Below are positions 3,375-34,046 of a stretch of DNA of 64,000 nucleotides, piece by piece. This DNA comes from Gekko japonicus (taxonomy: Eukaryota). Under the pieces are notes generated by a model that searched no databases, was not told the origin of the DNA, and saw nothing but the letters and a program-made list of their open reading frames with translations. Numbering within the stretch: the stretch's first letter is position 1; each line of letters opens with the position of its first letter. The DNA is taken from contig NW_015170283.1 in NCBI RefSeq assembly GCF_001447785.1, forward strand, positions 1,115,006 through 1,179,005. The letters run 5' to 3'. The position numbers and the translations under genes were made by a program.

Positions 3375-3909
3375 GGAACAGCCCATTAGGCCCACTTCCC
3401 AAAGGAGATGAGTTTCACACATTCCAAATTCTCCTCTGGCTTGGATGGTATCTCTTTCCATCTCTTTCGTTCTTCTCCCCTCACCAATTACCTTCTGCTT
3501 CTGGGGGGCACGTGGTAGAGGCAGAGATGATGGTAAACCATACGGCTGGACAGCAGTCTGAGAAAATATTCTCCCTCCCTCTTTTCCTCTCCCGCCTCAT
3601 TCCTCAGACACACTACATCTATAGCACCTCACATCATGCTGGGAAATATAGTTCCCAAGATGCCTGGCATCTAATGTCAGACATCCTGAGAACTATATTT
3701 CCAGAGTGCCAGGTGCCATGGGTGCATTTAAAGGGTCAGGGGAAGAGGAGGTAAGGAGAATTTTCCTTCCTTTTGGAAGGAACCTGACATGCCATAGTTT
3801 CAGCAGCAAGTAAGCTGCAAGTGGAGGGGAGACTAGGGAACATAGAACCCTATTGTGCTCATGATATTGGGCTTGGCATAACCACATACATCAACTTATA
3901 GGACATTTA

Positions 3910-3986
3910 CAGCGCTATTCTAAGCTTTCTAGGTCCATTGACATGAGAGGACTCAGAAGGGGTTAACTCTGTTTAGGATGGCACTG
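3910..3986. repeat. Short palindromic MITE-like repeat
   Basis: Imperfect terminal inverted repeats ACAGCGCTATTCTA / TAGGATGGCACTGT. Confidence 0.45.
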
Positions 3987-6894
3987 TTAATATCTGTCTG
4001 ATAGGGGAAAGGGGGGGGGCTCTCCAATTAGTAGCTTGTTAATGCTGACTAATCCGAGGCAGCCTGAAGCCCCCTGATGTGAAGGAACTTTTTTTAAGCA
4101 GCATATTCAGATTTAAATGTCAATTACAAAAATGGTTATCTGGTGGTGGTTGATGTTGTTTTTTAAATCCCTACTCTGAAATGAAATCCTTAAAACTCTT
4201 CCACATCAATAATCAAGAACACGCCCTTCCAGCAAGTATCAGATTGAAATGGCATTTCTCCACTTTCACAATTTAATTCCTCCTTCCTATGTTCAGGCTT
4301 TTTTTTTTTTTTTTTGCCAACCCATTATCAACGGTGAATGACAAAGCACTTGCCATTCCTACAATTAATACCATTTTCCCTTCCTATGTTCAATTCCTTG
4401 GAAATATGCCCTGACAGCCATCAGCACCAGTGAATGAAACCCCTCCACACATTCTATGGGAGGTGCATATTATTTTGCTGTTCGAGGCTTGAGACGATGT
4501 AAAGCGGTGACGACAACGGCGACAAAACCCTCCAGCCTTTGATTAGTTGAGCTGACATCAAATGGTAAATCAGGCATTCAGAGTCAACACTATAGGAGGC
4601 CTTCCAAAGGGAAATTGCCGCTCCTTCACCGTGCGCCGCTAGTGGCCCCTTAACTAGTTTCAGACAATGCCATTTTAACTACCCTTAGAAGACCTCTCTC
4701 TCTTTCCCCTCCCTGTCAACTTTAACACAGCCCGCCCCTTTGCTCCCAACGTCTGGTTCGCCTGCAGGCACCCAGGAGGAGCCTTTGAAATGGAACATTT
4801 ACGATTTACTCGCCACTGAAATACTTGGTGCTCTCTGAAAGAACTCGTCCCATCATTCTGCTGGTTTCTAGACTGCAATTAAACCTGAACCTCATGCAAT
4901 GCAAGCAGGGCCCGCTCCCGTGGACAGTCCTTGAACGTTACGATTCCCTTGGGTTTTCTCTCCTCTCCACCCCACCCCCCCAACACGATCCCCTCTTTTG
5001 TGCAGGGGCCTGTTATTGGTGGAATCTAGCAATCAATAATAAATATAACTTTTAGGTCAGTTTGCTTAGATGCGAATCCTGCACGAATGCAATTGGCTGG
5101 AAATGTGTGTTTGCCTTAAGTTCCCTGAGTTCAATGAGGTCATTTTCTCATCTTCCCGTTTTCTGTATTTTCCACAGACATGCCAGTCTCAAACAACACC
5201 CTCTTTCTTCATATTAGAAATGGAAACACGTCCTCTGCAGGAATTTTCCACTTAATAGCTTGTGCTTTCCTACCGGGGGCCTCAGCGCACCACCACTGCA
5301 ATGCCGTATTTCTTGCCGCTGCAGTTTGACATTTTGCAGCCAGCACAATAAGCTGTATTCACTCGCTGCAGATTTTTTTTTTTTAAAAAATACACACATA
5401 TCCGTATAGACACACGGTGCATAATGCAAACACCTTCCATGCTATTCCTTGCATAAAAGATACTTGCACAAGATTTGGTGTTGCAGCATTGTCAAACCTT
5501 TTATAGCACTTCCCTCCGATTTTCTCCTTTCAGACTTAAATACGCGCAAGCGAGCCTCCGTTTTGTGCTTGCTTCCAGGCAAGCATGAAAGACAATTCTC
5601 ATGTTCCGTAGCTGCCTGTAATTGTTTGCCTTTGTGAATTATATCCTTTGCATAGCATGTGCAAACTGTACATCACCGCCTGACACGATGATAAGAGGGA
5701 ACACAGATTGCTTATAATCTCTGCAGTAAACAAAAAAACCCAGCTTTAAAACATGCTGAATGACCTGTCTGGGCGCTACTGCATTTGTAAGACTGCCTCT
5801 AAACCCAGACGCTGCAATACTGTTTTGACCAAAAAAGAAATCTTCAAGGATCAGAAAAGCAAAAGATTTAAGTGGGTTGGATAGTGGGCTGCGGGATATA
5901 ATAACAATGATGCTTACAAAAAACTAAATAGAAAAAAAAAATCTTGCACAACTTAATTAAAGCTTCATTATCAGATATGATCACCGGGATTGTGCAAAGA
6001 TTTCCTCTGTCATTCTTAACGTCTGAACAGAGTGTCGCAGTGAGCGTTGCTGTGTTTATGGTTGAAGCAGAAGGTTCCCCTGTCTGCCCAGAGTTGGTAG
6101 AGTCTTCAGACAGCAAGGTCCCAGTAGGTCAGGCTGGCGAGCATGTTGAATTGCGTATTATCAAACGGAATCAGGGGTTGAGAGAGGGAGCGGGGAAAGG
6201 GTGTGTGTGGGGTGGGAGAGGTATGGTAGTGTCCAGGCAGGGAGGGTGGGCCATTGGGGGGGGGGCGTGATTGATGGATTGCAGGACACCTAGGGTATTT
6301 CTTTCAGGGGGTATTACTTCCACTGTTAGCCAAGAACAAGAGCAAAGGGGAGAGAAAGCAGCAGGGACTGACAGCCTTGTGTTGATCAAAGGGACATAGC
6401 GCTGAATGCCTTGCTAGCTATTTATTAGAAAGACAGGAGGGCTTTGCTATTCGAGCAGGGAGAGAGGGATTAAAGATCAAAAAAAGGGGGTAAGGGGACT
6501 TGCCTGACTTTGTTGTTCAGGGGAAATTTCTTCCACACACATATATATGTAATTTCTATTTGCAACAGCTGAGATTTTGGATGATGATAATGAATAATTA
6601 TCCTTTTTTAAAAAATGTAGGGAGGTCCCTCTGTGGTGAAATGTTTGGGAAACTGTCTTTTAGCCTGATTAACCTAGGAAATTAAGCTTAACTCAGCACT
6701 GCTGAGATTCTATTAGGATCATCCATTCACACATACAACAGGGAGCGGGGAGGTGTGTTCAAAAACATACCCTGTCAGTGCAGATGATTTCATGTTGCAG
6801 AAATGACTATGTGCTCCTGTGCAGGGGAAGGTTACTCTGCCAGCATGATGCCTGTTTCTCAGTGGCAAACTACACTTTATACTGCGGTCACAAG

Positions 6895-7100
6895 CAGTGT
6901 TCCCTCTAAGCTGAGTTAATGTGGGCTAGCTCACAGTTTTTTAGCCTCCGGCTCACACATTTTTGCCTTTGCTCAGGGAGGATGGCTCCAGAGCAAACTC
7001 ATTGATGCAGCAGCCAAATCGCTCGCTTACAACTTTAATGCCAGTAGCTCACAAAGTAGAATGTTTGCTCACAAGACTCCACAGCTTAGAGGGAGCATTG
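6895..7100. mobile_element. hAT-type MITE (family A)
   Basis: TIRs CAGTGTTCCCTCTAAGCTG / CAGCTTAGAGGGAGCATTG; perfect 8-bp TSD GTCACAAG (6887-6894, 7101-7108); second copy at 56431. Confidence 0.88.
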
Positions 7101-9001
7101 GTCACAAGTAACAAAACCATGATGGCTCCTTTACCTTTGCAAAGTACCCATTGAAGCAGAGAATGAAGGAAAGGGAGAGTTTCTGAAACGCCCCTCACCT
7201 CCCTAGTATTTTTATCCCGCAGGGTTCAAGATTTTGTGAAGGAAATATGGGTTCAAATTAATAAACTGGACAAAAACTTTGGGGTGGGGGGAATTTCAGG
7301 GAAGAGATGGTTTATACATTAAGCATTCTCTTCCTCTCTATCCCTCCTCTTTCAGGATTAAACAGTTCTGGCATAATTTTAATTTAATGGGGTATTATAT
7401 AGCCTTTGTTTTATGTTCACCTGTTGTTTCCATTCCTGTGTTCCTGCAAAGAGGTAAGAAAAACATCCAGTAAACTAACTGAGTAAATGTACAAACATGC
7501 TGTGTATGCATGCTGGTCAATAGTATTTGGAAAAATACAGATGCCACTGCAAATGTGGATTGCTGATCAGAAAACCCCCCAATTTAGATTGGATTGCCAT
7601 TTTTCTTCTTTTTAGCAGCTGCTTGATCAATGAACAAATGTTTTCACAGCAGCATTAACCCTGCCCTCATGACCACTGAATGTTCAGTAAATGTGTATAG
7701 AGGGGACCAGGCATTATTCCCAATTCCTTAGATCTGTGTAAAGAGACATAAGAGAAGCCATGGTGGATCAGGCCAATGGCCTATTCAGTCCAACACTCTG
7801 TCACACAATGGCCAAAAACACCAGGTGCCATCAGGAGGTCTACCAGTGGGGCCAGGACACTAGAAGCCCTCCCACTGTTGCCCCCCCCCAAGCACCAAGA
7901 ATACAGAGCATCACTTGCCCCATACCGAGAGTTCCTATCTATACCTTGTGGCTAATAGCCACTGATGGACCTCTGCTCCATATGTTTACTCAGTTTTCTC
8001 TTCAAACCATCCATGCTTGTAGCCGCTACCACCTCCTGTGGCAGTGAATTCGATGTGTTAATCGCTTTTCTGGTGAAGAAGTACTTCTTTTTATCCGTTC
8101 TAACCTGACCGCTCAGCAATTTCATTGAGTGCCCACGAGTTCTTGTATTGTGAGAAAGGGAGAAAAGTACTTATTTCTCTACCTGGTTGTTATAAACCTC
8201 TATCATGTCACCCCTCAACTGTTGTTTCTCCAAGCTAAAGAGCCCCAAGCGATTTAACCTTTCTTCATAGGGAAAGCGTTCAACCCTTTTATCATTCTAA
8301 TTGCCCTTTTCTGCACTTTTTCCAGCGCTATAATATCCTTTCTGAGATGTGGTGACCAGAACTGCACATAGTATTCCAAATGAGGTTGCACCATCGATTT
8401 ATACAGCGGCATTATGATACTGGCTGATTTGTTTTCAGTTCCCTTCCTAATAATCCCCAGGATAATGTTGGTCTTTTTTTATTGCAGTCACACAGTGTCT
8501 CGACATGTTCAGTGAATTATCTACTATGACTGCAAAGTCTCTCTTTTGGTCAGTCTCCATCAGTTTGGACCCCATCAACGTGTATTTATAGTTAGGATTT
8601 TTGGCCCCAATGTGAATCACTTTGCACTTGGCCACATTGAACCCCATTTGCTACATTGACGCCCACTCGCCCATCTTCGACAGATCCCTTTGGTGTGCCT
8701 TACAATCCTCCCTGGTTCTCACCTCCCTGAACAATTTAGCATCATCCGCAAATTTAGCCACTTCACTGCTTTCTCCCAACCCAAGTCCTAATTAATAATG
8801 AACAAGTTAAAAACATTGGACCCAGTACTGATCCCTGAGGTACCCTACTGCTTACCACCCTCGACTGTGGAAATTGCCCATTTACACTCTGTTTCCTATT
8901 AATTAGCCAGTTTTTGATACACAGGAGGACTTTTTTTATTCCATGACTATTGAGCTTAATTAGTTATCAAAAGCTTTCTGGAAGTCAAGGTAAACAACAT
9001 C

Positions 9002-17252: not shown

Positions 17253-18228
17253 GGGGGCGTGGCGACTCTGAAGATAATGGTGGTCATCTAATCTTCTGGC
17301 TCTGCTTCCCTTCCCTCTAATAAAGCTCCTACAGACCAAAAACAAAGACTATAATATCCCCGGTATGGGCAGAAATAACGACAATAATACCGGCAATAAT
17401 TCTACTATCGTCAAAATACCAAGTAAGTCTCCCAAAGACTTTTTTCAACCATGCAATAGTCGGCCGGAGCACAAGCATTTTGGCGCCGAAAAAACGGACA
17501 TGGCGGCCGATCTTTTTCTGGCACATGCTGTAGAATCGGCATTAAGTAAACAAGACCTGCCTAATCTACTAGAACAGATGGAACGTAGGCTTACCAACCA
17601 TCTGATGAGATCACTGCAGCCGGTTCGGGAACAATTATCGGAAATACAAGCTTCCCTGACACAGAAATCTCAGAAAGCAGAGTCTGCTCTCAATATGGGA
17701 CTACTCCTGAAGGATGGCATCAAAGACATCTAGGCAAGAGAAATAGTTTTTAGAGATTGTTTGCTCACCTTTGGAGGCCAAGTAAGATACCTCAACTTGA
17801 AAATTAGGGGGATCTCAGAAGGGGAGGAAGGAAANNNNNNNNNNNNNNNNNNNNNNNNNNNNNNNNNNNNNNNNNNNNNNNNNNNNNNNNNNNNNNNNNN
17901 NNNNNNNNNNNNNNNNNNNNNNNNNNNNNNNNNNNNNNNNNNNNNNNNNNNNNNNNNNNNNNNNNNNNNNNNNNNNNTAAAGCTTGAGACAGTCGTACAA
18001 ATCACTATGGTCAAGTAAAGAATGAAATCAGTATAACATGGGGACATAGAATGACACCCTCCCGTGATAATATTACACTTTGTGGGATCCTAGAAATTCA
18101 CTTCCAATCATCTCCAACATTATTGACAAATTTGGGATCGTATTTGGATTACAGCTGAACTCACAGAAACCTGAAATGTACCCAATCACCATATAAAAAA
18201 TGACGAGAGAAGAGTTGACTACTTCCTT
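17253..18228 (+). mobile_element. L1 LINE: 5' end, ORF1 and (after the gap) part of ORF2 RT; host of the YR elements
   Basis: GGGGGCGTGGC 5' start; ORF1 coiled coil then NLKIRGISEGEEG; after the gap DPRNSLPIISNIIDKFGIVFGLQLNSQK (RT). Confidence 0.8.
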
Positions 18229-18280
18229 TGCCCCCCCAGATGGAAGAAATAGACAACAAGGTTGGATGAAATAAGGCCAC

Positions 18281-18286
18281 TTTATT
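18281..18286 (-). promoter_or_regulatory. Polyadenylation signal of YR element #1
   Basis: AATAAA on the minus strand ~55 nt from the element end, followed by a GU/U-rich tract. Confidence 0.6.
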
Positions 18287-18688
18287 AAAATATTAACTTA
18301 ACGGCAAAGGGCAAATATGGAAACAGCGGCACGGCAAGGCCTGGTGTCGATTTGACTCCCATTCTTAAACTGTATAAACGGCAAGACACCACGGCCCTAG
18401 GTTGGAGCCAACCATGAGTTGCTTACAAATCCAGTCGAGCCAAGATTGGGATGCACCTTCAGGAGCCCTCAAACACCACCGCACGGCCAGTGCTGAGTCT
18501 CCGTTGTGACCATCCCCATAGGCAGACTGCAAGCCTCCTCCGAGGTAGCACGGCTACAGGGTTGAACCCGCAGACCCCTCTACCCCCCACCAGGGGTTAT
18601 TAATTGGTGCTTGCTAGCCGCTGAACTTTATTTAAACCTAATTCTGCCACCGCAAGGGTCAAGCCTCTGCTTAGGCCCCTGCGCCCAC

Positions 18689-19269
18689 TCAAACACCTAA
18701 AATTAGCTTAATCCCTTGCCACAAATCCTGAAGGAAGATGTCATTTCCCTTCTCGGAAAGGTGCACGCCATCCTCTCTGTACAGGTCCGGAAAATCAAGC
18801 TGAATCTGGGGGTGAGGCAAGTAGTGGCCCAATCCAACCTTTAACATTTAATAAAACTCCCCATTGGCCCTACGCCGAGCCCTTTCGATCCCCCTGGGGT
18901 CCCAAGCGCTACGCCATACCCGGCGCGGAATCATGGCCGACCACACAATTACTGTGTCTGGCCATTGGCGCTTAATGCACTCCAGGTCATCCCTGGCTTG
19001 CCACACAAGGGCCTTCCCCTTCAGAAATCCCAAATCTTTACCTCCCAGGTGGATAACCAACACATCTGGCGGCAAGGCTGAACTGGCCTTAAACAAAAGA
19101 CGGAGGAGGCCCGGCCAATGAAGGCCCTGACGCCCCCTCCACTCAGCCATAGCCCACTGGCTGAGGCCCAGTTGCGAGCCAATGGCCGATCGATTGGCCC
19201 GATGAGCCACCCAGAAGATGTAGCTGTGTCCGGAGATGAGAATCCGTCTCCTGCCACAAAACACAGCTC
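18689..19269 (-). pseudogene. SGNH/GDSL hydrolase ORF of element #1 (one frameshift near 18848)
   Basis: ILISGHS (block I), VIHLGGKD (block III), LYREDGVHLSEKGN (block V); stop at 18689-18691. Confidence 0.85.
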
Positions 19270-19331
19270 CTAGGAAGAAACGACAATGAACTCCAGAACC
19301 CAACAGCATGAATAGCATTGCAAACAGTAAC

Positions 19332-20249
19332 TTATACTAAAGGAAGTGGGCGCACATAACGTTTGCAAGTGGCAGAGCGCCACCTGCCAACTCTCTGAAT
19401 ATCAGCAGTGGGATAGCCCAAGGCTGCCGCCGTGGATGCAGCTCCTATTCTGAAAGAGTGAGTCCCAAACTTCACTCCAGCAAGGCCTAAGAATCCCAAA
19501 GCCCGGGCCGTAACAGCCCAAAACTGGTGCTTTGTCAGTGGGCTACCATCTGCATGGAGAAAGAGGTATCCGTCCGCATTGCCCCTGAAAACCCTGTACT
19601 GAGACAAAGCCAATACAGGGCATAGCTCAGAGTCGGAACAGACACCCAACTTGACCACTGACCCTTTATGCCGCTGGTCAGTTTTGGAGCCCCTAATCGT
19701 GATGTGTGCCTCCTTCCCCTTAAATTGAAGGTCCCGAATGTGCAAAACCCTGCCCAACTGGTCAGTCTTGGCCATCGCTACAAGCTCGCTTACTCTATGC
19801 GCCCCGAAGAATGCCAGCAGCGAAGCCGCGTGGAACAGGCAGGCTTCCAAACCGGAACTGCACACTCTGGACCAGGTTGCCTGCAATCCCTTCAGCACTG
19901 CAGGTGAAATAGGATGCCTCTGGTCCTTTAAAACCCCTCATTCCCTTGTCCAGCCTTCCAACATCTTTCTAATCTGAAAGTCCCCAGTGACTTCCATAAA
20001 ACCCATAGCCTTGCTAGCAAATGCAAGGGCAGAAAGACGTCCCCGTATGGAGCTAACAGCCAAACCTGCATCCTTCAGATAAATGGAATAATGCATCAGC
20101 TGCTCCAATGCAATGGGCCAGACCTTGAGATAGCCCTCTAGCTTCCTAAATTCCTCGAATTGGCGAACTGACCGTTCATAGCCTCTTCGCGTGCTAGGGG
20201 CGATGGCAAGGCCTATTGCCCTGCAAGCCTCGGCCCTCCAACCTGCCAT
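19332..20249 (-). pseudogene. Tyrosine recombinase of element #1
   Basis: STRRGY..; AFFGAHRVSEL; SKTDQ; THSFRIGAAS; GRWRS..KRYVR. Interrupted near 19938; start overlaps the RNase H end. Confidence 0.92.
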
Positions 20250-21860
20250 AGCTCCGGGGGCATACTTGCCGGCTGAAGATCGGCGTCTGGAGCAAGCTGA
20301 CAAAACCTCGCCATCTGTTTGCGAGAGAGAGCGTCAGCTACCCCATTGTCCACCCCCGGCACATGCCTAGCTACAAACAGTATGTTAAACCGCAGGCATC
20401 GCAGCGTAAAGGCTCGAACCAAGCACATTACCCTTGGTGATTTAGATGTGAGGGAATTGATGACGTGTACCACTGCCAAATTATCGCACCAAAAGTGCAC
20501 CGTATGATTTGCCAACTCAGTCCCCCACAGCCAAACTGCAACTAAAATGGGGAAGAACTCCAGGTATGTCAGGTCTCTAGTAAACCCGGCAGCAATCCAG
20601 TCTTCAGGCCATTCCTCCGCACACCAGTGTCAGCGGAAATAAACCCCGAAGCCCTGGGACCCTGCGGCATCCGACATGACCTGCAGCTCTGCTTCAAGCT
20701 TTAAGTCCTCCCGCCAAAAAGAGACTCCATTAAAGGAAGTCAAAAATTCCTGCCAAACCATTAGGTCTTCCCTCATTGCACCGTTAATACACACCTTGTG
20801 ATGCAGCCACTGAAGCCCAGACATGGCATCACACAGCCTGTGCAAGAAGGCCCTACCAGGGGCAACCACTTTGCATGTGAAGTTAAGGTGCCCCGTCAGT
20901 TGCTGGATTTCTCTCAGTGTGGCCTTTCCTCGTGACAAGAATTCGAAAATGCGATCCCTCAGGGCAGTGATTTTGTCCCTGGGCAGTCGGGATGTCTGGG
21001 CCACTGTATCCAGTTCAACACCCAGAAAATCCAACTTCTGTGCTGGACCTTCAGTCTTTTCATGGGCCAGAGGAACCCCCAGCTCCAAGGCCAAATTCTG
21101 AAACTCTTGAAGGAGCAGGGCACATTTATTTGTTCCATGAGGTCCCACAAAAAGGAAATCATCTAAATAGTGTGCAACATCCTGAAGGCCCATCTTAGCT
21201 CGTAAAGCCCATTCCAGGAATGAACTAAAGCGCTCAAATGCAGCGCATGACACAGAACATCCCATGGGTAATGCCCTGTCCATGAAGAACTGGCCACCAA
21301 AAGAGAATCCCAGCAGCTCGAAATCATCTGGATGCACGGGGAGGAGGCAAAATGCTGACTTAATATCGCACTTCGCCAACTCTGCCCCCCGACCACAGCG
21401 CTGCACAATCCGTACTGCCTGGTCAAAGGAGGTGTACCTCACTGTGCACAGATTATCAGGAATGGCATCATTAACTGAATCACCTCACGGATATGAAAGG
21501 TGGTGAATTAAACGAAATTCACCAGCTGCCTTTTTAGGCACAATCCCCAGAGGTGAAACTCTCAAATTAGGGATCGGTGGTGAAGAAAATGGGCCCAGAT
21601 CACAGCCCTCCTCCAGTTCCTTGGCAATCTTTTCCCTCACCACCGACTCCATGCCCTTGACTGATTTAAGATTAGAGGCCATAAACGGGGCCCTAACTCC
21701 TTGAAAGGGTATATGAAAACCGAACGTGAATCCCTCTAACAAGTAAACTCTGTCCTCCTCTTTAGGGTACCCCCGTAGCCAGGCTTCAAGTGCCGTCAGG
21801 CGTATTGGACTGGGGCCCTTTACCAGTGGAAGAGGAGGAACCACCCCCTCCCCTCTGCCT
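20213..21860 (-). pseudogene. RT/RNase H (pol) of element #1
   Basis: SPLGIVPKK..FRLIHHLS; AKCDIKSAF; LPMGCSVS; HYLDDFLF; SDAAGSQGFG; FWCDN; HVPGVDNGVADALSR. Confidence 0.93.
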
Positions 21861-23190
21861 CTGACTCCTGCGAGTCCTTCTTCGTGGACAAGAAGGAAAG
21901 GAGTGGGGTCCTCCACATGCTGGGCATTCATGCCAGAATGTGCATGACTTCCTATCACATACCCCCCGGGACCCAAAATCCCAACAGAGCAAGCAGGGTT
22001 GAACCACCTGTCCCGTGACACCACAGGAAGTATTAGCCCCCTGCACACGCTGCATGATATGCCCACTATGCGAGCGTTCAACAGCAGATAAATTGAGCGT
22101 GGACATAATCTGAAGCCACAGATGAGGATGCATTCTATCCCATGGAAGCATGGGATTCATAGCAGCCCTCATCCGGAACTCCTCGTCATATTCCAGCCAT
22201 GCTGGGCCCGGGAAGCTCGTATAGGCCTTATAAATTATGTCCAGATATTGGAACAGCGCCGGGGACCTCAAAGGCTGAGACCTAGACAACAGGCCAGCGT
22301 AAATTAAATATCCTGCCAGCCAGTTGGCCCAAGTCCTATCCACCTTCTTTCTTCTCAATATCTCCTTTTCCTTGTCGTCCATCTCCTCTTTATCCTTCTT
22401 CTCTAAATCCCGGTAGAGAAGGCTAAAGATGTCAATGAATTCACCCTTACAATTTTTTTCCTTTGTTGCGGGTAAAAGGTGATCGCCCAAAGGCAAGGCA
22501 GTATCCCCGAAAGGCATTGCTGATGCTGACGCAGCATTGTAAGGGTTCACCCAAGGGGGGGGTACACCCTAGACTACCCCAAGGACCAGCCTGAACTGGA
22601 CCCCAAGGGGACTGTATAGCCTGAGAAGGAGGGCCCCAAGCTCATGGTTCAGTAGTGTCACCAGAGCTTTTAATTGCGTTGGTCTGCGAGGCAGACGACA
22701 CCCCCGAGCTAGCTCCCTGACCCCACGGCCCCCATGGCCACATCATACTGAGCTGTAATGCTGGATCCCACGTACCACTGGGACCCGGTTGTTCCGTCTC
22801 CACAACTTCGACTGGCACGACATCTGCTTCAGCTGCAACTGCTCCAGACGCCCTGGAATCATTTCCAGCATCAGGCCCAACAGCAGTAGGCCTGCATTCA
22901 AATGAAGAAAGCCATTTAATGACCTCCTCTCTGAACCTCTTTCTCTCAACCCGGCACTCTTTTCTGCGATCAAAACTGACGACCGCCTGTGGAGGTGTTG
23001 TAACCGCCTCCACCCGAGCTTGCTGCAGTGCAGCCAACCTGTCTAAAATTAGTTGTTGCTCGGCCCTTTCCACCTCATCATCAGACGAGGAAGGAGCAGT
23101 GTTAGGGCCCTCAGGTGTGGGTGCAGGTGCGGGCCTTTTAGGCGCAGGCCCCTTGCCTTTCGAACGGCCCTGTCCTTTACGGGATGCCAT
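21786..23190 (-). pseudogene. gag-like ORF1 of element #1
   Basis: Basic N-terminus MASRKGQG; conserved core GD.ALPLG.HL..W..YDEEFR; C-terminal Cys/His cluster CWDF..C..C..HEC..C..H; internal stops and a frameshift. Confidence 0.8.
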
Positions 23191-24229
23191 ACCATTTACT
23201 ATGAAATGCGTAACTATCTAAAATGATAAGTGTATATGGCTGCCACACCACCCACACAAGTGGCTATCTAAGCAAACCACCTGAAATGGCCGCCACTGAA
23301 CACACACTTAAAATGGCTGACTCACCAAACTGCTCCTACCCAGCAACACAGGTGTTTATAATTCCACCAACAGAGGGGTTTACCACCAAAACCACCCGGC
23401 CGTTATGAACTGAACTGAGCGGCCTATGCCATGATGTGCACACCAACCACTTAATCCCACCACCCTTAAGAAGTCCAGGATAAGGGAACTAGGGGCCCCG
23501 GCAGCCTCACCAACTGCCTCAACTACACCCCCAAAGGCCCTTGACTGCACACACCCCGGCCGGAACGTGTCAGGGAAAGTCCCACCCCCCTGTGTGTATG
23601 TGACTTTCTTAACAAGGAGGGCTGACTGCTGCAGGCTGACAAGCCTGCGCTCAATTGCCTGCTGGGCTTGCTAACACAAGCCCAGCCCAGCAAACAACAG
23701 CCGCCGCTTCCGTGCACCACCGCCCGCTCAGGCGACCGGTGCCGGTTCTGGCTGCGACGCGGCCCTCCTCTCCTGCCGCCGATGCGGCTTGCTACTCTCG
23801 AGCCCTGACGGCGCTGGCTCCTGCCGAGACGCAGCACAGACTCCGCCTCAAAAATCGCGCCGGCCCAGCCCGACAGTTCCTGCCTCTGGAGGAGCCAAAA
23901 CGTGCAGCCGCTGCAGCACCAAGCCCCCCAACGTTGCTGAAAGCTCCCCTGTCGCTCGCTGTTGAACTAAGACCTCTCCCGCTGCCTCCGGCCTCAAGGG
24001 GAGCCCAAAGCCAGGGAACTAGCCAAGGTAGCGCTCAGAGCTCAACTCGATCCGAGCACGAGGCGACAGACTGCAAGGGGGAGAGGACAGAGCCTGCCTT
24101 TAAGAAGTGTAGGCTCTGCTCCCCCTCTTGGAATTTAGGCTGCACTGCAGCACATCCCTATGCCTCCTCACGAGGAGGCAAACGCAGCCCCCAGGAGGCA
24201 TGCCGTGGGCTGTCTTTTGCGGGGCCGGA

Positions 24230-24602
24230 TTCCTTACAAATGGATCTCTGCAGGTTGGAGACACTTGGGAATTCAGATACTGTTGGAACTTAACAAACTC
24301 TTTGACTCTAGTTTCAAAAAACTGCATACTGATATTCAAAGCCGAATCCGAGACTGGAATGCTTTAAAACTATCCTTAGCAGATTGTATGCAACTCATCC
24401 AAAGCTTTTTATTTCCTAGCTTTCTGTTCCTTTCCCGAGCACTACCTATACATATTTTGGACGCTGAAATAGTCAAATGGCAAAGCACTCTTACTAACTT
24501 TTTATGGGCCTCCAAACGTTCCAGAATTGACAGATGTCACCTCTCAAGACCAATTTTGAAAGGTGGTCTTTATTGCACCATTATCATCAGGCGGCTGTTC
24601 TT
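24230..24602 (+). mobile_element. L1 ORF2 segment between the two YR elements
   Basis: PYKW..RHLGIQI..W..LKLS..FLW.SKRSRI..KGGL then YHQAAVL; continues the RT interrupted at 18228. Confidence 0.85.
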
Positions 24603-25076
24603 TGCCCCCCCAGCCAGAATAATGAGACAGACAACAGTTTGGAATTAAACAAGGGCCACTATCAACTATTTAACAGAATATTGCAGCAATGACAACTAAG
24701 CAAGCATGGAACAGGCAAGGCAGGCATCACTCCATGACCAACCCCCTTGCCCTTAAAGGGCGGGTCACCCAGCTCCGGCCGTGAGCCATTTACTCTCTGG
24801 CTCGTGACCAGCAGCCCAGCAACTGGTTGCCTCCTAGGAGCGCCTACCCCTGAAACCTTCCAACCTGCAGGGAGGAGCCTGCCCTAAAAGGTTCCCAGAG
24901 GAGGTGATCACCATTCCCCACCCAGGACCCTGAAATCCGAAGGCAGTTCGTGATGACCACCTGTTCCCTAACAGGATATGCCGAAAGGTGCTCACCAGTT
25001 CCGTTTTCTTACTTGCACAAACCTGCCACAGCCAAGGCCAAGCCTCTGCTTTAGCCTTTGCTCCCCACTCAGCATC

Positions 25077-25645
25077 CTATTGCCAACCTTGCTGCAAGTC
25101 CTGCAAAAATATCCCATTGCCCTTGTCAGACAAATGCACCCCGTCGTCTCTATACAGGTCCCTGAAAACAACCCGTATATCGGGGTGCAGCAAGAACATC
25201 CCCAAACCAGCATCCATGGCCTTTCTCAGCTGCCTATTAACTTTTCGTCTGGCGCGGTCAATACACCTGGGGTCCTCCAAGTTTCGCCACACCTGGCAGG
25301 GCAGTATGGCCGACCATACTATCTTCACACCGGGCCACCTTGCTCTTATCCTCGAAAGGTCTGCCTCGGCCTGTAACACAAGGCCCTTGCCCTTCAATAG
25401 ACCCAGATCATTGCCCCCCAGGTGTATTACCAGAACATGAGGAGGAGGCCCCTTCCTCTCGTCAAATAGCAGGGGAAGGAGCGCGGGCCACCGCATGCCC
25501 CTCCTCCCCAGCCATTCCACTTCTGCCCATGCACTAAAGCCAAGCTGAGAGCCGCAGGATGTCCTTCTGGCCTGATGAGCCACCCAGAAGACCATGCTGT
25601 GGCCACAGATGGTGACCCTTTGTCTCACTCCATGGCCTGCAGCAT
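25077..25645 (-). pseudogene. SGNH/GDSL hydrolase ORF of element #2 (frame open)
   Basis: VTICGHS; GRRGMRW; VIHLGGND; LYRDDGVHLSDKGN. Confidence 0.88.
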
Positions 25646-25692
25646 CTGTAAAAAGAACATTATTAATAAATCATCTAAATGAAATGGGATAT

Positions 25693-26609
25693 TTAAACAA
25701 TGCACTTCCTGACGTAACCCTTGTAGCGACGTGACTTCCAGTGACCTATCCGCTGAATCTCGCTGCTCGTATAACCCATGGCCACCGCTGTTGATGCGGC
25801 CCCTATGCAGAAAGAGTGAGTTCCAAAGCGAACCCCCCCCCCAATCCCAAGCGGGCTAATGCCTTCTGAGTCAGGCTCCAAAATTGAAACCTGGTGAGGG
25901 GAGTGCCATCCCTGTGTCGGAATAGGTAACCCCGGCCCTTACCTCTCAAGGCCAAGTAATGGCTCAAGGCCTCAAATGGGCATAACTCAATTTCTGAGCA
26001 TTGGTTGAGCTCAATAACCTTCCCCTTGCTGCACTGGTCTGTCTTTGACCGACGTAACCTAATTCCCACTTTGGAGCCTGACACGGAAACATCCCGCTGT
26101 TCAAGTGCTAGGCCTGAAACATCCTGCCGAGAGCCAGCCATCAGCTCGCTGATCCGCAGTGCCCCCAAAAAGGCAACCAGTGATGCAGCATGAAACAGGG
26201 CAGCCTCATAGCCATCAGCGCACAATGCCTGCCACTGATTCCTGAGCCCCCTCAATATTGCTGGAGTCAAAGGCTCTCTGGTGTCAGCTACCCTGCCGCT
26301 CTCCCTGGACCAGCCCTCGAGCATCTTGCGGATACAGAAATCACCCGTATTGTCTGCGCACCCAGATGCCTTGCTGGCAAAGGCCAGCGCAGACAGTTTG
26401 GCCCTGATGGAATGAGCTGACAGGCCGTCACGTCTTAATTTAACACAGAAATGCTTTAAATGAGGAACAGGTATGGGCCTAACTTGCCGCAGTCCAGCTC
26501 CCTCCCTGAAGGACAAGAACTGCTTTCCGGCCCTCAAATAAGCTCTGCGTGTGGAAGGGGCAAGAGCCAAGCTCATTGACCTATTGGCCTCAGCCCGCCA
26601 ATCTGCCAC
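25693..26609 (-). pseudogene. Tyrosine recombinase of element #2
   Basis: AFLGALRISEL; SKTDQ; THSFCIGAAS (catalytic R to C); GHWKS..GYVR; frameshift near 25835. Confidence 0.92.
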
Positions 26610-28170
26610 ACCTCGGCTGGCATACGCACCGGGAACTGGTCGGCTTCTGGCGTCAGCTGATGGAATCTCTCCACCTGTTTTCGAGAGAGAGCATCAGCGA
26701 CCCCGTTATTAACTCCCGGCACATGCCTAGCCTTGAACATTATATTGTTGTTTAAACACTGCAGAGTAAAGGCCCTGACCAAAGCCATGACCCTGGGGGA
26801 CTTGGACGTCAAGGAGCTGATCACGTGTACTGTGGACATGTTGTTGCACCAGAAGTGGATGGTGTGGTTGGTAAACTCCCATGACCAAATCCACACTGCT
26901 GCGACAATCGGAAAAAATTCCAGGACGGAAAAAATTCCCTGCCTGAAACCATTCCTCAGGCCAGTCCCCAGCACACCAGTGCCCCCGGAAATATACTCCA
27001 AAGCCGGAGGCACCTGCAGCATCAGATGCAACCTGCAGCTCCGCTTCAACTAGAGGGTCCTCACGCCAAAAGGACACCCCGTTGTATGAACCCAAAAATT
27101 GCTTCCATACAAGGAGGTCATCCTGTATCCCCTTGGTGACCCTAGTCCTATGATGGGGGAGACGCAGCCCCATCATAGACTCACACAGTCTCCTAACAAA
27201 GGCCCTGCCGGGTGCCACAACTTTGCATGCAAAGTTGAGGTGACCAACCAACTGCTGCAACTCCAACAGGGTTATCTTGTTCTTTTTCCTAGTTGTGTCT
27301 ATTAATGTCTGTAGTGAAGCCAATTTATCCATAGGTAATCTGCAGAACTGCCCCACCGTGTCAACTTTGATGCCCAGGAAATCAAAATATGGGACGGGCC
27401 TTCTGTTTTTTCCTGAGCCAGAGGAACTCCCAGCTCCCTTGCCAGATTGATAAAGCTGGACAGCAAAAAGGCACATTGACCCGTACCCCTCATTCCTGCC
27501 AATAAAAATCATCAAGGTGATGAGCAGTGCTGCTGAGACCCGTCCTGTACCGCAGGGCCCACTCCAGAAAGGAACTGAACCTCTCAAAAGCAGCACAGGA
27601 TACAGAACAACCCATAGGAAGGGCCCTGTCCATATAAAATTTGCCCTCAAAAGCAAATCCCAGGAGCTCGAAGTCGGCTGGGTGGACAGGAAGGAGGCAG
27701 AAGGCTGACTTAATGTCACATTTTGCCAATTCCGCTCCCTGTCCACAGCTGCGCACTACCCGCAGGGCCTGATCAAAGGAGGTGTACCTAACAGAATACA
27801 ACTCCTCAGGTATCGCGTCATTCACCGATTTGCCACGAGGGTAAGACAAGTGGTGAATGAGGCGATATTCTCCAGGTGCCTTCTTTGGCACAACTCCCAA
27901 CGGGGAAACCATCAAACTGCTAACTGGGGGTGAAGGAAAAGGCCCCAGGACTCTACCCTCCGTACATTCCTTGTTAATTTTTTCCCTAACTATTTGCTCC
28001 ATACCTCGCACTGATTTCAAGTTAGGAGTCATGTATGGAGTCCTAGAACCCTGAAAAGGTATCCTGAATCCCAACCTAAAACCTTCCAATAGGTAACTGC
28101 GATCCCGTTTGTTCGGATAGTCCTTCAACCAACGCTCTAAAACTGCAAGCTTTATTGGGCTAGGTCCCTT
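26573..28170 (-). pseudogene. RT/RNase H (pol) of element #2
   Basis: SPLGVVPKK..YRLIHHLSYP; AKCDIKSAF; HHLDDF; ASDAAG; HVPGVNNGVADALSR; several frameshifts. Confidence 0.92.
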
Positions 28171-29374
28171 TATCAGGAGGGGGGTTAACACCCCCTCCCC
28201 CTCCGGAGCGCTTGCAGCCTCTACCGCCTCCCCTGCCCTTTGGCTTGGGGCAGTTAGTGAATGAATGGGGACCTGCACATAATGGACACTCATGCCGAAA
28301 TGCACATGACCTCCGACCACACGTCCCATGGGAGGTAAACTCCCAGCAAAGCGGGCGTGGGTGTATCCGGTCCCATCGCATTGCAGTATTCATGGCCGCA
28401 CGCATACGGAATTCCTCGTCATACTGCGACCATGCTGGGCTTGGAAAATCTGTGTAAGCCTTATAGATGATACCCATGTATTGCAGCAGTGCTACCGCTC
28501 TCCATGGATGATGCCGGACTATAACTGAGGCATATATCAAAAACCCTGGGTACCAATTTGCCCAGGTCCTATCCACCACCCGCCTCTTCATTTGCCCAGG
28601 TCCTATCCATCACCCGCCTCTTCAGGCGCTCCTTTTCCCGGTCATCCAGATCCTCCCTGTCTTTCTTTTCCAACTCTCTATATAATAACGTGAATACATC
28701 TACGTATTCGCCCTTAAGGATCTTCTCCTTCGTGGCGATAGAGAGATGATTCCCAAGGGGCAGGGCCGAATCACCCGATGGCATAGCCGCTGGCTGAGAC
28801 TGTATCATACGAGACATCCCCCGTGTTTGGTAACTTATTTGTGGATATCCCCATCCAGGGCAAACCCCGGGGGGGGTGGATGCCCACAACTCCAGCCTGC
28901 ATAATGGTGACAGCTTGTTGGCGCCGCTTGGGGTGCGGGCCCAGAGGCACCCTGAGGGCATGGGCCCCATGGTCAGTGTGAAGTATCCTTCTCGCCATGC
29001 CCCTCCTTACCATCAGTCTTTGGGGGCTCCTTGTACACCTCAACCTGAAGCTCCTCAGCGTCCTGCCCCTGTTGACCAGATGTAGACGCGTCACCTTCGT
29101 CCCCCACCTGTTTGTCCTCCAAAAAGGCCAAGCGGGCAAGCACCTGTGCTTGAAAAGAAGCATTAGAATCTCCTTGTGTTCTTTTAACCCCCCCCCCGCT
29201 TGACTGACAAGCACCCCATTGCTTCTCCAAAGCCTCCAACCTCTGTAAAATAGCTACATTTACAGGGTCATCTTCTTCCCCATCAGATGGTATAGCCGGC
29301 ACTGGCCGCACAGGGGGCTGCTTAGGCGCTGGCTTCTTCCCCTTGGCTTTCCCTTGACCTTTCTTGGAAGCCAT
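28160..29374 (-). pseudogene. gag-like ORF1 of element #2
   Basis: MASKKGQG..; GDSALPLGNHL..TKEKILKGE; YDEEFRMRAA; CWEF..HECPLCAGPH; 34-bp tandem duplication at 28557-28624. Confidence 0.8.
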
Positions 29375-30426
29375 AACTACTAACAAGTATCTAAACCGTT
29401 ACCTAAAGAACGTATGGCAACAATGGGTAAGACTACAAACGACTAGGCCCCTGAATAAAGCCCTCTAGCCTTCACTAAAAATGGCTGACAGCAATACAGT
29501 AAGGCCCGGCCCTATATAAATATTATCAAAATTTTCTCCTATCCAGAAAAATATTAAATGTCAACCCTTAGGGGGAGACGTAGCAAAATGTTTTTCAAGA
29601 GGCAGAAGTAAACCCTAATTGCGGAGCAACAGCCACTAGGGGGAGTACCTCCAGCCTGCCTATGCCAATCAATGTCTCCCTCCCTTTTCCCGGCAACAGC
29701 CACCAGGGGGCAACACTGTACTCTGCCCCTCACACCGGCAAAAAATCAAATTGCCCAGCAACAGCCCAATGGGGGGGGGGGCTATTAACAGAAAGGAATG
29801 AAGGCCCCCAAAAACCCACTGGCCAGAACCGGGGCCGTTAACCACCCCAATGGCCCAAACATTTAACTTATTTATTTAACTTATGGCCGGGGAGAGCCGA
29901 AATGAAAGGGGGGGCAATAGCCCAAGGCTTATCTGCGCGGCCCTGGAACCGTGTCCAAGGGCCGCTGATGTTTCTCCCTCATGCCGCCGTCGCCACCGTC
30001 CAGGCCCCCCGACCGCTGCCCCACTCTGCCGCCTTTGTCCCAAAAATGGGCACCGCTGCCACCCGCGCTGCCTCGCACGGGCGGCTTGAAGCCTTCCTGC
30101 AGCCGATCGCCCAGCCGGGCCAATCTGCTACCTTCAAGCCACCGCGATCAGGCTAATGCTGCCCTGATCACCCTGCCAGTGTTGTTGCTGCCGCCCGCTG
30201 AAAGCCCCGCCCGGAATTGGCCCGAACTTGGTCGCCTCCTCCATGCAAGGCCACAACCAGGCCAGCACCAAACGCTCCGCTCTGCGTGCTCTTCTCAGAA
30301 TGAGCACGCGGAGCAACTGACAGAGGGCGGGAGCGGAGCCTGGCCCTTTGCATCGGCCGGCTCCGCCCCCCAACGCGTCAGGACGCATAGCATCCTCTTC
30401 GCTGCCGTCTCCATTCTTCGGAGCGG

Positions 30427-30507
30427 CCCTCCCATCCCCAAACCCCACCCTCATCAGGCTCCACCCCCAAAATCTCCAGGTATTTCCCAATGTGGAGCTG
30501 GCAACCC
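30427..30507. mobile_element. Partial hAT-type MITE (family C, TAGGGTTGCCA TIR)
   Basis: Matches the end of family C copies: CTCCACCCCCAAAATCTCCAGGTATTTCCC..TGGCAACCC. Confidence 0.7.
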
Positions 30508-31149
30508 AAGCTGTGTTTGCTTTTTATTATGGGGGGGGGAGCCTTAACCCTTTCATTTGTGGGCTACCTATTTTCTGCATGGGAAAATCCCTCCCCCCAG
30601 CAAAATGTCTGCTTCTGGCTCCCCCTTCCTATCTTGCATGTACAACTCCAGGTAACAGAACAGGAAAACTGAGTTTGTGCAAGGATTTGGGGAAATGCTT
30701 GCCATGCACAGGAATGCAAATCGGAATGATTCCATTTGGCATAAATGTGAGGCAAGGGTTCAGGTTGGACAAGGTCCCTGCCAGGTACATATCTGCTGAG
30801 TTATTTTCACCCTTCACTGTTGCTCTTGCTGCTGCCCTCAGGAAGTGGAAGGTTTAAGATGCTGAAAACAGAAACTGAAAGCAAAGTGAAGATGCTGACC
30901 TGCCATCAAAATAATGTTTGATTGTGGCCTATTTGGTTTCTTCCCAAAAGGCATAAATAATTTCATTGGTATAATTTACCTTTCCAGTGCTAGTGAATAG
31001 GGATCAGATTGGGATGGTGATATATTAACAAAAACACTGCTTAGATTAGCTTTTAATGTGTTATATTCCAGGCCCACATCCTTATCTATTATGATGAATA
31101 GTCAACGATGACAAACTGTCCCATATTTCTCCACCTATTGCTGAGCAAG

Positions 31150-32094: not shown

Positions 32095-33580
32095 TGGCTT
32101 TTTCCAGCGTCGGGGACAGAGGGTGGTGCTCGGGGAGAGGGTTTCACCGCAACACCCACTGGTAAGCGGTGCCCCTCAGGGGGTGGTCCTCTCCCTGGTG
32201 TTGTTTAACATCTACATGTGCCCCCTCTAGGGTTGCCAGGTCTGGGTTGGAAAATACCTGGAGATGTTGGGGGTGGGTCCAGGAGAGGGTGCGGTTTGAG
32301 GAGGGGAGGGGCCTCAGCATGGTACAATGTCATAGAGTCCACCCTTCAAAGCAGCCATTTTCTCCAGTCAGTTGTAAAAGCAGGAGATCTCCAGCCCCCA
32401 CCTGTGGGTTCGCAACCCTAGCCTCCTCACCCAGCTAATCCGGGGGGTTGAGTATGCTGATGACACCCAGCTGTATCTGTTGATGGATGGATGGCCGGAC
32501 TTGGCCCCAGTTATTCTGGACAAGGTATTGGAGGCTGTGACTGGTTGGTTGCAGCAGAACCTGCTGAAATTAAATCCATCCAAGATGGAGGCCCTGTTCC
32601 TGAGTTGCGGGGGGGGGGCAGATCTGGGAATTCAGCTCCCAGTCCTTGGTGGGGCAGCATTAGTGCCAACACCGAAGGTGAGGAGTTTAGGAGTGATACT
32701 GGATGCCTCGTTAACTATGGAGTCCCAGATCACCAGTGTTGCAAAATCAGCCTTTTACCATCATCGGCTGGTTCGGCAACTAGTTCCCTATCTGTCCCCC
32801 TGGCACTTGGCTACCGTGATCCAAGCAATGGTCACTTCCAGGTTAGGCTACTGTAACTTGCTTTACTCAAGGCTACCTTTGAATATGACCTGGAAACTCC
32901 AGCTAGTGCAGAATGCGGTAGCATGCTTTCTGATTGTGACGTCTGTGCGAGCAGGCATTCAGCTGGTGCTACGCCAATTGTACTGGCTACTAATTGAGTA
33001 CCAGATCTGGTTCAAGGTGTTTGTGCTAACCTTTAAAGCCCTATGTGGCCAGGGACCAGCATATCTGTGGGACCGCCTCTCCCCATATGTACCCTGTAGA
33101 GCTTTACACTTGGCAGAGCAACATGTACTGGCAGTCCCCAGCCCAAAAGATGTCCAACTGGCCTCAACTAAGGCCAGGGCTTTCTCTGCTCTGGCTGGCC
33201 TCAGCCTGGTGGAATATGCTCCCAATTGAGATAAGGGACCTGTGGGACTTATTATAGTTCTGCAGGGCCTGTAGAATGGAGCTGTTCCACCAGGCTTTTG
33301 GCTAACTGGCAGGCAACTGCTTTTTCTGGCCCTTCCCGCCCAAACTGCTCTCATACTCATTCGATGGTGTAAAGGGCAATGGTTTCCATCAATATGAACT
33401 GGACTACTATTATGTTTCTGCCCGCCTGCCCTTCAATGCAAGGATTCTTACTGGCTTGCCATCTGTTTTAAAATTGGATTCTTAATTGTTCATGGTTTTA
33501 TGATGTGGTTTTATTGTTCATATTCCTGTTGTGACCTGCTTTGAGACTGCTTGTGGGGGAGGGCAGGATAAAAATCAAAT
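32095..33580 (+). mobile_element. L2 LINE 3' portion
   Basis: GAPQGVVLSLVLFNIYM; YADDTQLY; LKLNPSKME; VTSRLGYCN..LQLVQNA. Confidence 0.88.
32228..32420. mobile_element. hAT-type MITE (family C) inserted in L2
   Basis: TAGGGTTGCCA ... CGCAACCCTA; TSD GCCCCCTC/GCCTCCTC. Confidence 0.8.
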
Positions 33581-33834: not shown

Positions 33835-34046
33835 TAGGATTGCCAGCTCCAGCTTTGGAAATGCCTGGAGATTTGGAGGTGGACCCTGGAGAAGACAGAG
33901 TTTGGGGATGGGGGGGGGGAGCTTAGAAGGAATGTGATGCTCTACAGTCTACCCTGCAAAGTGGCCATATACTCCAGGGAAACTGATCTCTGTACTTTGT
34001 AGATAATTTGTAATCTTGGGAGATCTCCAGGCACTAGGGTTGCCAG
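33835..34046. mobile_element. hAT-type MITE (family C)
   Basis: Starts TAGGATTGCCA; family C body. Confidence 0.65.

Follow-up and report, generated by a model that had tools for sequence, protein, structure and literature searches.

Two adjacent, decayed tyrosine-recombinase (YR) retrotransposons in the genome of Gekko japonicus belong to families that, judging from the conservation of their splice signals, likely use one phase-1 donor in gag with two alternative acceptors. Each element carries gag, reverse transcriptase/RNase H (RT/RH), YR and SGNH hydrolase open reading frames (ORFs). Very likely, the spliceosome joins the gag donor to an acceptor after the YR stop, which removes the C-terminal part of Gag (Gag-C), RT/RH and YR and fuses the N-terminal part (Gag-N) to the SGNH domain. 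The same donor joined to an acceptor inside the RH motif DALSRKQ would make the recombinase, a step we consider fairly probable. The window analysed here is a stretch of 64,000 nucleotides (nt) of contig NW_015170283.1 (positions 1,115,006 to 1,179,005); positions below are those of the window, its two elements lie on the minus strand, and a slash marks a splice junction.

A conserved donor in gag and acceptor before the SGNH exon

The original prediction had placed a donor in gag and an acceptor between the YR stop and the SGNH motifs of each element. All four sites are found at those places, all in phase 1, and the introns measure exactly the predicted 3506 nt (element 1) and 3365 nt (element 2). 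The element 1 Gag-N coding exon (22776–23190) runs from the ATG at 23190 over 415 nt, or 138 codons plus 1 nt, to the donor GTG/GTACGT (AGTG/GTACGT with the preceding base; 22770–22778, GT at 22775). The corresponding exon of element 2 (29011–29374, ATG at 29374) spans 364 nt, or 121 codons plus 1 nt, and ends at ATG/GTAAGG (GATG/GTAAGG; 29005–29013, GT at 29010), so that the 120–140 Gag residues expected to be joined in frame to SGNH agree with the exon lengths. Both donors occupy the equivalent place in gag, as had been claimed, but they lie 35 nt upstream of the codons for the shared WPWGP motif rather than directly before them; the Trp codon of this motif reads TGA in element 2 of the window. 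The WPWGP codons themselves (22726–22740 and 28961–28975) form G-runs 35–55 nt into the intron, which, we assume by analogy, might double as intronic splice enhancers.

The element 1 acceptor, TTTCTTCCTAG/ (19270–19290, ending at 19270), is the best-scoring of 240 conserved AGs in its family and opens an SGNH exon (18671–19269) with GHS, GGKD and DGVH motifs, in which Lys replaces the catalytic Asn and a premature stop follows 139 codons. In element 2 the acceptor, TGTTCTTTTTACAG/, also written TTTTACAG/ (25646–25670, ending at 25646), lies 41 nt before the glycine codon of GHS. Its exon (25077–25645) holds 188 open codons with GHS, GGND and DGVH, matches Lipase_GDSL_2 with an E value of 3.5e-11 and, as predicted, has no in-frame ATG upstream of GHS. 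The SGNH frame is reached by skipping 2 nt after each AG.

Single window copies prove little, because the donors are unremarkable by score alone: with a rough scoring matrix, they rank ninth of 291 GTs (element 1) and second of 261 (element 2). What raises them above chance is their conservation in copies, the positions kept in distant families, the unitig ends in RNA-like contigs and annotated gene models. The copies analysed come from 39 family-1 and 40 family-2 loci, namely the highest-scoring gag candidates (from 131 and 61) together with two matches to the acceptor. As expected of used sites, GT and AG are kept: the donor GT is present in 37/38 family-1 and 34/34 family-2 copies that cover it, the sole miss being a gap beside an intact GT, and the acceptor YAG in 19/19 (TAG/G in all 19) and 24/24 copies, with a branch-like motif before the family-2 acceptor in 22/22. 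Several family-1 copies carry G/GTAAGT. The family-2 donor is the best-scoring of 158 conserved GTs, while the family-1 donor and family-2 acceptor rank sixth and fifth. The T of the donor is the wobble base of a glycine codon and is invariant in 37/37 (family 1) and 30/30 (family 2) copies; by comparison, only 2/72 and 4/53 fourfold-degenerate control sites are invariant (mean conservation 0.75 and 0.74), and in family 2 the donor glycine has the only invariant wobble base among 13 listed glycines.

The phases and positions are also kept in more distant families. An SGNH search of the genome returned 5754 candidates, 150 of which were scored; 40 of these, picked for long or stop-free frames and mostly 62–75% identical, served as distant loci, three of them not orientable or anchorable. 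A YAG lies exactly 41 nt before the GHS glycine in 31/37 anchored loci. Of 14 matches to a WPWGP-like pattern, six were loose or fell outside gag and were removed beforehand; in 8/8 loci with a true gag WPWGP, the top-scoring donor in a range of 100 nt is in phase 1 and precedes the motif by exactly 35 nt, as in the window. Between the families, the sequence diverges upstream of the SGNH AG and aligns downstream of it, the position of the AG being constant. Two internally rearranged copies (L078, 4730–5600; L079, 1700–2250) hold tandem SGNH fragments directly upstream of a retained acceptor.

Ends of RNA-like contigs fit the predicted splice sites

A contig set of 171 million letters, presumed to be RNA (X1), contains an expressed copy ~88% like element 1 and shows branching at both splice sites in that copy. 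One record ends exactly at 19270, the SGNH acceptor. The alignment of a second runs from its start at 19241 to 22785, and its 19 remaining letters give a computed end of 22804, or 22775+29. The intron unitig expected at k=31 with a shared G on each side spans 19241–22804, the extent computed for this second record. The exon is covered at depth 38 and the intron at depth 25. Within the SGNH exon, a further X1 contig, of depth 75, leaves out 316 nt (18842–19157) from a minus-strand GT onwards, through either a second splicing event or a deletion in a different copy.

Lizard gene models join Gag-N to SGNH

Among 19 longer SGNH relatives, 14 have a Gag-N homologue at their start and contain neither RT nor YR; the other five are two DUSP12 isoforms, one keratin, one receptor and one unnamed protein. 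Gag-N/SGNH fusion models occur in eight lizards (Eublepharis, Heteronotia, two Anolis, Rhineura, Elgaria, Hemicordylus and Pogona). A single-sequence Gag-N search gave none among 495 candidates, and a profile search gave 218 representatives, with all named relatives being lizards and the closest proteins coming from geckos. The partners among the best 150 of these 218 are SGNH in 15, YR in 11, both in 1, Gag-C in 9 and RT in 0; since SGNH fusions were the source of the profile, the counts free of bias are those for YR and Gag alone.

One fusion model could be placed on the genome. P0038 maps on locus L083 as a DUSP12 exon, a cryptic entry into gag-N, and an intron between the homologous sites, from GAGG/GTAAGC, 35 nt before WPWGP, to TTTTCTTTCTAG/G, 41 nt before GHS. 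L083 (reverse strand, 3080–7315) is an element inside a DUSP12 intron, with RT, RH and YR only in pieces; the DUSP12 exon is not a processed retrocopy, since the locus holds a whole element. The DUSP12 models of two gecko genera, P0038 and P0039, have their final exons in common, a gag tail and an SGNH exon (57% and 73% identical), and both SGNH frames are open and lack the catalytic His, possibly a shared exaptation of a dead esterase domain. Two Heteronotia models, P0043 and P0055, combine the SGNH exon with a keratin and with a vomeronasal receptor; they likely reflect annotation chimeras or exon capture.

The predicted fusion has a basic N-terminus and an SGNH-type domain

In the predicted structure of fusion P0041, a basic, disordered start is followed by helices at residues 33–52, 59–70 and 74–90, a disordered linker and a confident SGNH domain (predicted local distance difference test ~75–95). 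Element 1 Gag-N has a basic N-terminus, an acidic patch, two helical segments and a linker, and aligns with the N-termini of the RefSeq fusion models. The first 30 residues contain 7–10 Lys or Arg in 10/10 models. GHS and G-ND are present in 20/20 fusion models and DG[VI]H in 19/20, and shared variants are biased to the third codon position in both exons. Foldseek (E 2.7e-7) matched the fold to PAF-acetylhydrolase and TesA, both ranked above 4C1B (rank 43), while 4C1B, the ZfL2-1 esterase, is the top PDB sequence match of the fusion profile (E 0.0013). By its catalytic Ser, Asn and Asp-x-x-His blocks and its modelled alpha/beta fold, the product thus qualifies as a putative SGNH hydrolase, and the proposed likeness to ZfL2-1 ORF1p, with a basic N-terminus, helices, linker and SGNH domain, is borne out. 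An identity as retroviral Env was rejected, as only SGNH families and folds were matched: the term env-like, used in the original prediction, is apt for the splicing logic only, and the product is no envelope protein.

A predicted second acceptor before the recombinase

The gag donor also fits a second phase-1 acceptor before the recombinase, a point absent from the original prediction. Elgaria isoforms with an insert of 49–50 residues pointed to AAACAG/ within DALSRKQ. In element 1 this predicted acceptor (20315–20337, ending at 20315) is in phase 1 inside DALSRKQ and comprises the tract CTCTCTCTCG and a CTGAC branch-like motif, whose TGA closes the YR frame. The element 2 counterpart (26675–26697, ending at 26675) reads CTGAT followed by CTCTCTCTCG and AAAACAG/, also in phase 1, with YAG in 21/23 copies. 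Across 49 copies, YAG is present in 46/49, and in 48/49 a TGA that forms part of a CTGAY branch-like motif closes the YR frame. The YR exon of element 1 (19332–20314) has one in-frame stop and that of element 2 (25690–26674) is broken near its end. Most family-2 copies also hold an inner phase-1 donor, G/GTAAGC, in the YR start (26522–26530; GT in 19/23 rows, lost in the window copy). It bounds a 147-nt mini-exon, which corresponds to the 49-residue insert of Elgaria isoform P0049 over P0048.

Gag-N/YR models occur in seven lizards: Eublepharis, Elgaria, A. sagrei, Tiliqua, Hemicordylus and, in part, Rhineura and Pogona. Where SGNH and YR models could be paired, they share the N-terminus and diverge at a single position in 3/3 cases; it precedes the YR Trp by 26 residues, the distance predicted for both window elements. 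The A. sagrei pair are isoforms X2 and X3, with consecutive accessions.

RT/RH itself (20213–21820 in element 1, with two in-frame stops) is probably made another way. No conserved phase-1 AG was found at 41 AAAGGG-N-CC anchors, which were selected on the encoded motif, and Pol overlaps gag in the +1 frame at this conserved word (21810–21825 and 28160–28175).

Points against the scheme and alternative readings

Several observations weigh against splicing at these sites. The RNA nature of X1 is a guess, its donor-side end was computed from 19 unaligned letters, and no bridging unitig was displayed. No read or contig crosses the gag/SGNH junction in the RNA data; raw runs X3–X5 listed no joint and are uninformative on it because their depth on the gag exons is 0–2. 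RNA support covers family 1 only, with none for the family-2 splice, and the X1 intron unitig has no branch point at the YR acceptor and hence shows no use of it. A search of the genome for spliced retrocopies with two proximity patterns, exact matches only, gave 0 matches. Two loci considered as spliced copies (L058 and L077) are not joined to an SGNH exon, and the long-frame SGNH loci L080–L087, considered as processed copies, are gaps, YR read-through or deletions. The RefSeq models are automated predictions whose intron support is not visible, and 114 of the best 150 of 218 Gag-N profile matches have no recognisable partner. The copies were picked as best BLAST matches and are related by descent. 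Wobble sites neighbouring the family-1 donor reach 0.97, which weakens the control in that family, as these sites are nearly as conserved. The YR acceptor sits in a conserved RH motif, and protein constraint therefore confounds its conservation; a Met precedes the YR Trp in 21/49 YR frames. Finally, an in-frame ATG (19316–19318 in element 1, where it speaks against an obligatory splice) precedes the SGNH acceptor in 17/18 family-1 copies with no shared stop before the acceptor, and 12/40 distant loci have an upstream Met. The predicted fusion by splicing is supported by copy conservation, the X1 unitig ends, the RefSeq models of eight lizards and the L083 intron, but not by a junction read.

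Of the other explanations, the one that fares best accepts the SGNH splice and derives the recombinase from RT/RH by -1 frameshifting, as proposed by Poulter and Butler 2015 in the quotation given in PMC13003380; Gag-N/YR models would then be minor or mispredicted isoforms. YR overlaps RH in the -1 frame in the window elements too, and both the unbranched X1 unitig at 20315 and the protein-constrained setting of the YR acceptor fit this explanation. However, none of the 49 RH/YR overlaps contains a canonical XXXYYYZ slippery heptamer, the Gln codon at the acceptor is CAG rather than CAA in 45/46 copies, and Gag-N is joined to YR in the models of seven lizard species, at the predicted residue in all three paired ones. 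We therefore regard frameshifting as unlikely and favour the shared gag donor, whose predicted use with the recombinase acceptor is new relative to the frameshifting proposed in print.

Alternatively, SGNH could be translated from its own start codon, by way of a short RNA, re-initiation or internal entry, with the splice a side route or confined to ATG-less families. A conserved in-frame ATG for SGNH had been named as evidence against the original prediction; it is lacking in family 2 (upstream ATG in 2/22 copies) and in the 28/40 distant loci that have none, but is present in family 1. There, the ATG 16 codons upstream is nearly universal, two copies have a 12-nt deletion that leaves the frame intact, and the shared variants between ATG and acceptor comprise 4 synonymous, 4 non-synonymous and 0 stop changes; moreover, a Met occurs six codons inside the exon in four copies of family 2. 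Yet the rarity of the upstream Met in family 2 and distant loci, the constant place of the AG while the sequence upstream diverges between families, and the X1 contigs of family 1 itself, which break at the acceptor, make translation from an own start improbable compared with the splice. Equally remote is the idea that the sites, though real, are used mainly in read-through transcripts from host genes or to curb full-length element RNA, with the fusion idle in transposition: several models do splice the SGNH exon to a host gene (DUSP12, keratin, vomeronasal receptor) and the window copies are dead, but phase 1 and fixed positions are kept across families and lizard lineages, the catalytic motifs persist in the fusion models (GHS and G-ND in 20/20, DG[VI]H in 19/20) and shared variants show third-position bias in both exons.

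Class and ends of the two elements

Both elements are decayed Ngaro-type tyrosine-recombinase retrotransposons. Their ORF order of gag, RT/RH and YR is Ngaro-like, and the SGNH hydrolase ORF after YR places them in the vertebrate Ngaro-like subgroup as defined in PMC9210276. Element 1 (18228–24232) matches RVT_1, Phage_integrase and Lipase_GDSL_2 in Pfam; it runs from its A1 start to a single B end, GGGGGGCAA, without A2-B2, and contains no self-repeat. Element 2 (24600–30427), of a second family and, like element 1, with ends set by other copies, is ~67% identical to element 1 over pol and lacks the first ~50 nt of A as well as A2-B2. No methyltransferase domain follows RH: the RH frame stops inside the YR start, and there is no Dam match at E 0.1. 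An identity as a DIRS-1-type element was rejected, as there is no inverted repeat, no inverted match >20 nt between the termini and the interior, and no methyltransferase.

Split repeats of the form A1...B1-A2-B2 are found in L087 (95% and 98%) and L079 (91% and 92%) and are absent from both window copies and from 37/38 oriented distant loci. Most copies (window 18228 and 24600; L080–L119) terminate in one B repeat (GGGGGCAA and its flank) and lack A2-B2, and locus L057 holds an A-B unit. The A2-B2 part may have been lost by recombination between B1 and B2 or through action of the recombinase on the internal junction. Element 2 is adjoined by a short repeat with high transcription (30427–30510), which replaces ~50 nt of the element's start; inverted copies of this repeat lie at 32227–32310 and 33837–33916. 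Near the 5' end of both families are strong conserved AG sites, at 24071 (24/24 copies) and 30317 (25/26).

A proposed Gag module shared by three proteins

In the scheme that we favour, one N-terminal Gag module would be carried by three proteins: full Gag from unspliced RNA (whose remaining gag part in element 1, 21786–22775, is broken in the window copy, with 182 open codons from the ATG), a Gag-N/recombinase and a Gag-N/SGNH esterase. The module would bind element RNA through its basic stretch and self-associate through its helices, and it would thereby load the recombinase and the esterase into the Gag particle, where the esterase would act on or bind membranes, as the ZfL2-1 ORF1p esterase does. 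By analogy, packaging by the shared module and a lipid role of the esterase are conceivable, though we put them forward tentatively. With similar reserve, we suggest that vertebrate Ngaro elements may be organised like complex retroviruses, with a Gag-N packaging tag spliced onto a recombinase and a lipid esterase; the particle would be equipped for membranes without an envelope gene, the ZfL2-1 ORF1p architecture would have been rebuilt independently, and YR would arise by splicing rather than frameshifting.

The hydrolase ORF has had neither a known function nor a known start, and YR expression has been put down to frameshifting in print; one donor with two acceptors would explain how both proteins are made. 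If true, a basic-helical-esterase design was reached by two retroelement classes that are unrelated to each other, and the case for a lipid step in retrotransposition would be strengthened. Under the scheme, dozens of lizard RefSeq genes labelled "uncharacterized" would be splice products of such elements, and it would show how host genes such as DUSP12 capture the esterase exon.

Comparison with known systems

Retroviruses make spliced subgenomic RNAs, as in the avian sarcoma-leukosis viruses, whose env RNA uses a donor inside gag, and the foamy viruses, with spliced pol and Bet. The scheme proposed here resembles these in its one 5' donor, its alternative acceptors and the removal of the replication ORFs as an intron. 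It differs in that the products would be an esterase and a recombinase that keep 120–170 Gag residues, rather than an envelope glycoprotein with a short leader.

In the available text of the literature searched (including PMC6681497, PMC3783388, PMC7192593, PMC8547959, PMC7599744 and bioRxiv 2021.04.08.439009), there is no description of splicing of gag to SGNH or YR, though the founding Ngaro papers, one by Goodwin and Poulter (2004) and one by Poulter and Butler (2015), may mention spliced expressed sequence tags. The closest relatives in design are the Xenopus elements DIRS-53_XT and DIRS-54_XT, which the available part of PMC9210276 draws with four overlapping ORFs, the hydrolase without proven function, and in which the words "splic" and "intron" are absent from that text. 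These elements share with ours the order of gag, RT/RH, YR and then SGNH, the lack of a methyltransferase and split repeats in few copies. By contrast, SGNH and YR here look like alternative 3' exons of gag, and most copies lack A2-B2.

For the ZfL2-1 ORF1p of a CR1/L2 non-long-terminal-repeat element, dimerization, hydrolysis and lipid binding were shown (PMC3905857). The predicted fusion shares with it a basic N-terminal motif, a helical segment, a linker and a C-terminal SGNH domain. ZfL2-1 ORF1p is an unspliced first ORF of an element without Gag, whereas the SGNH domain here would be the last exon of a YR element, reached by a predicted splice and made beside full Gag. By analogy, the Gag-N/SGNH fusion would thus work like a ZfL2-1-type esterase ORF1p, while by position it is not one.

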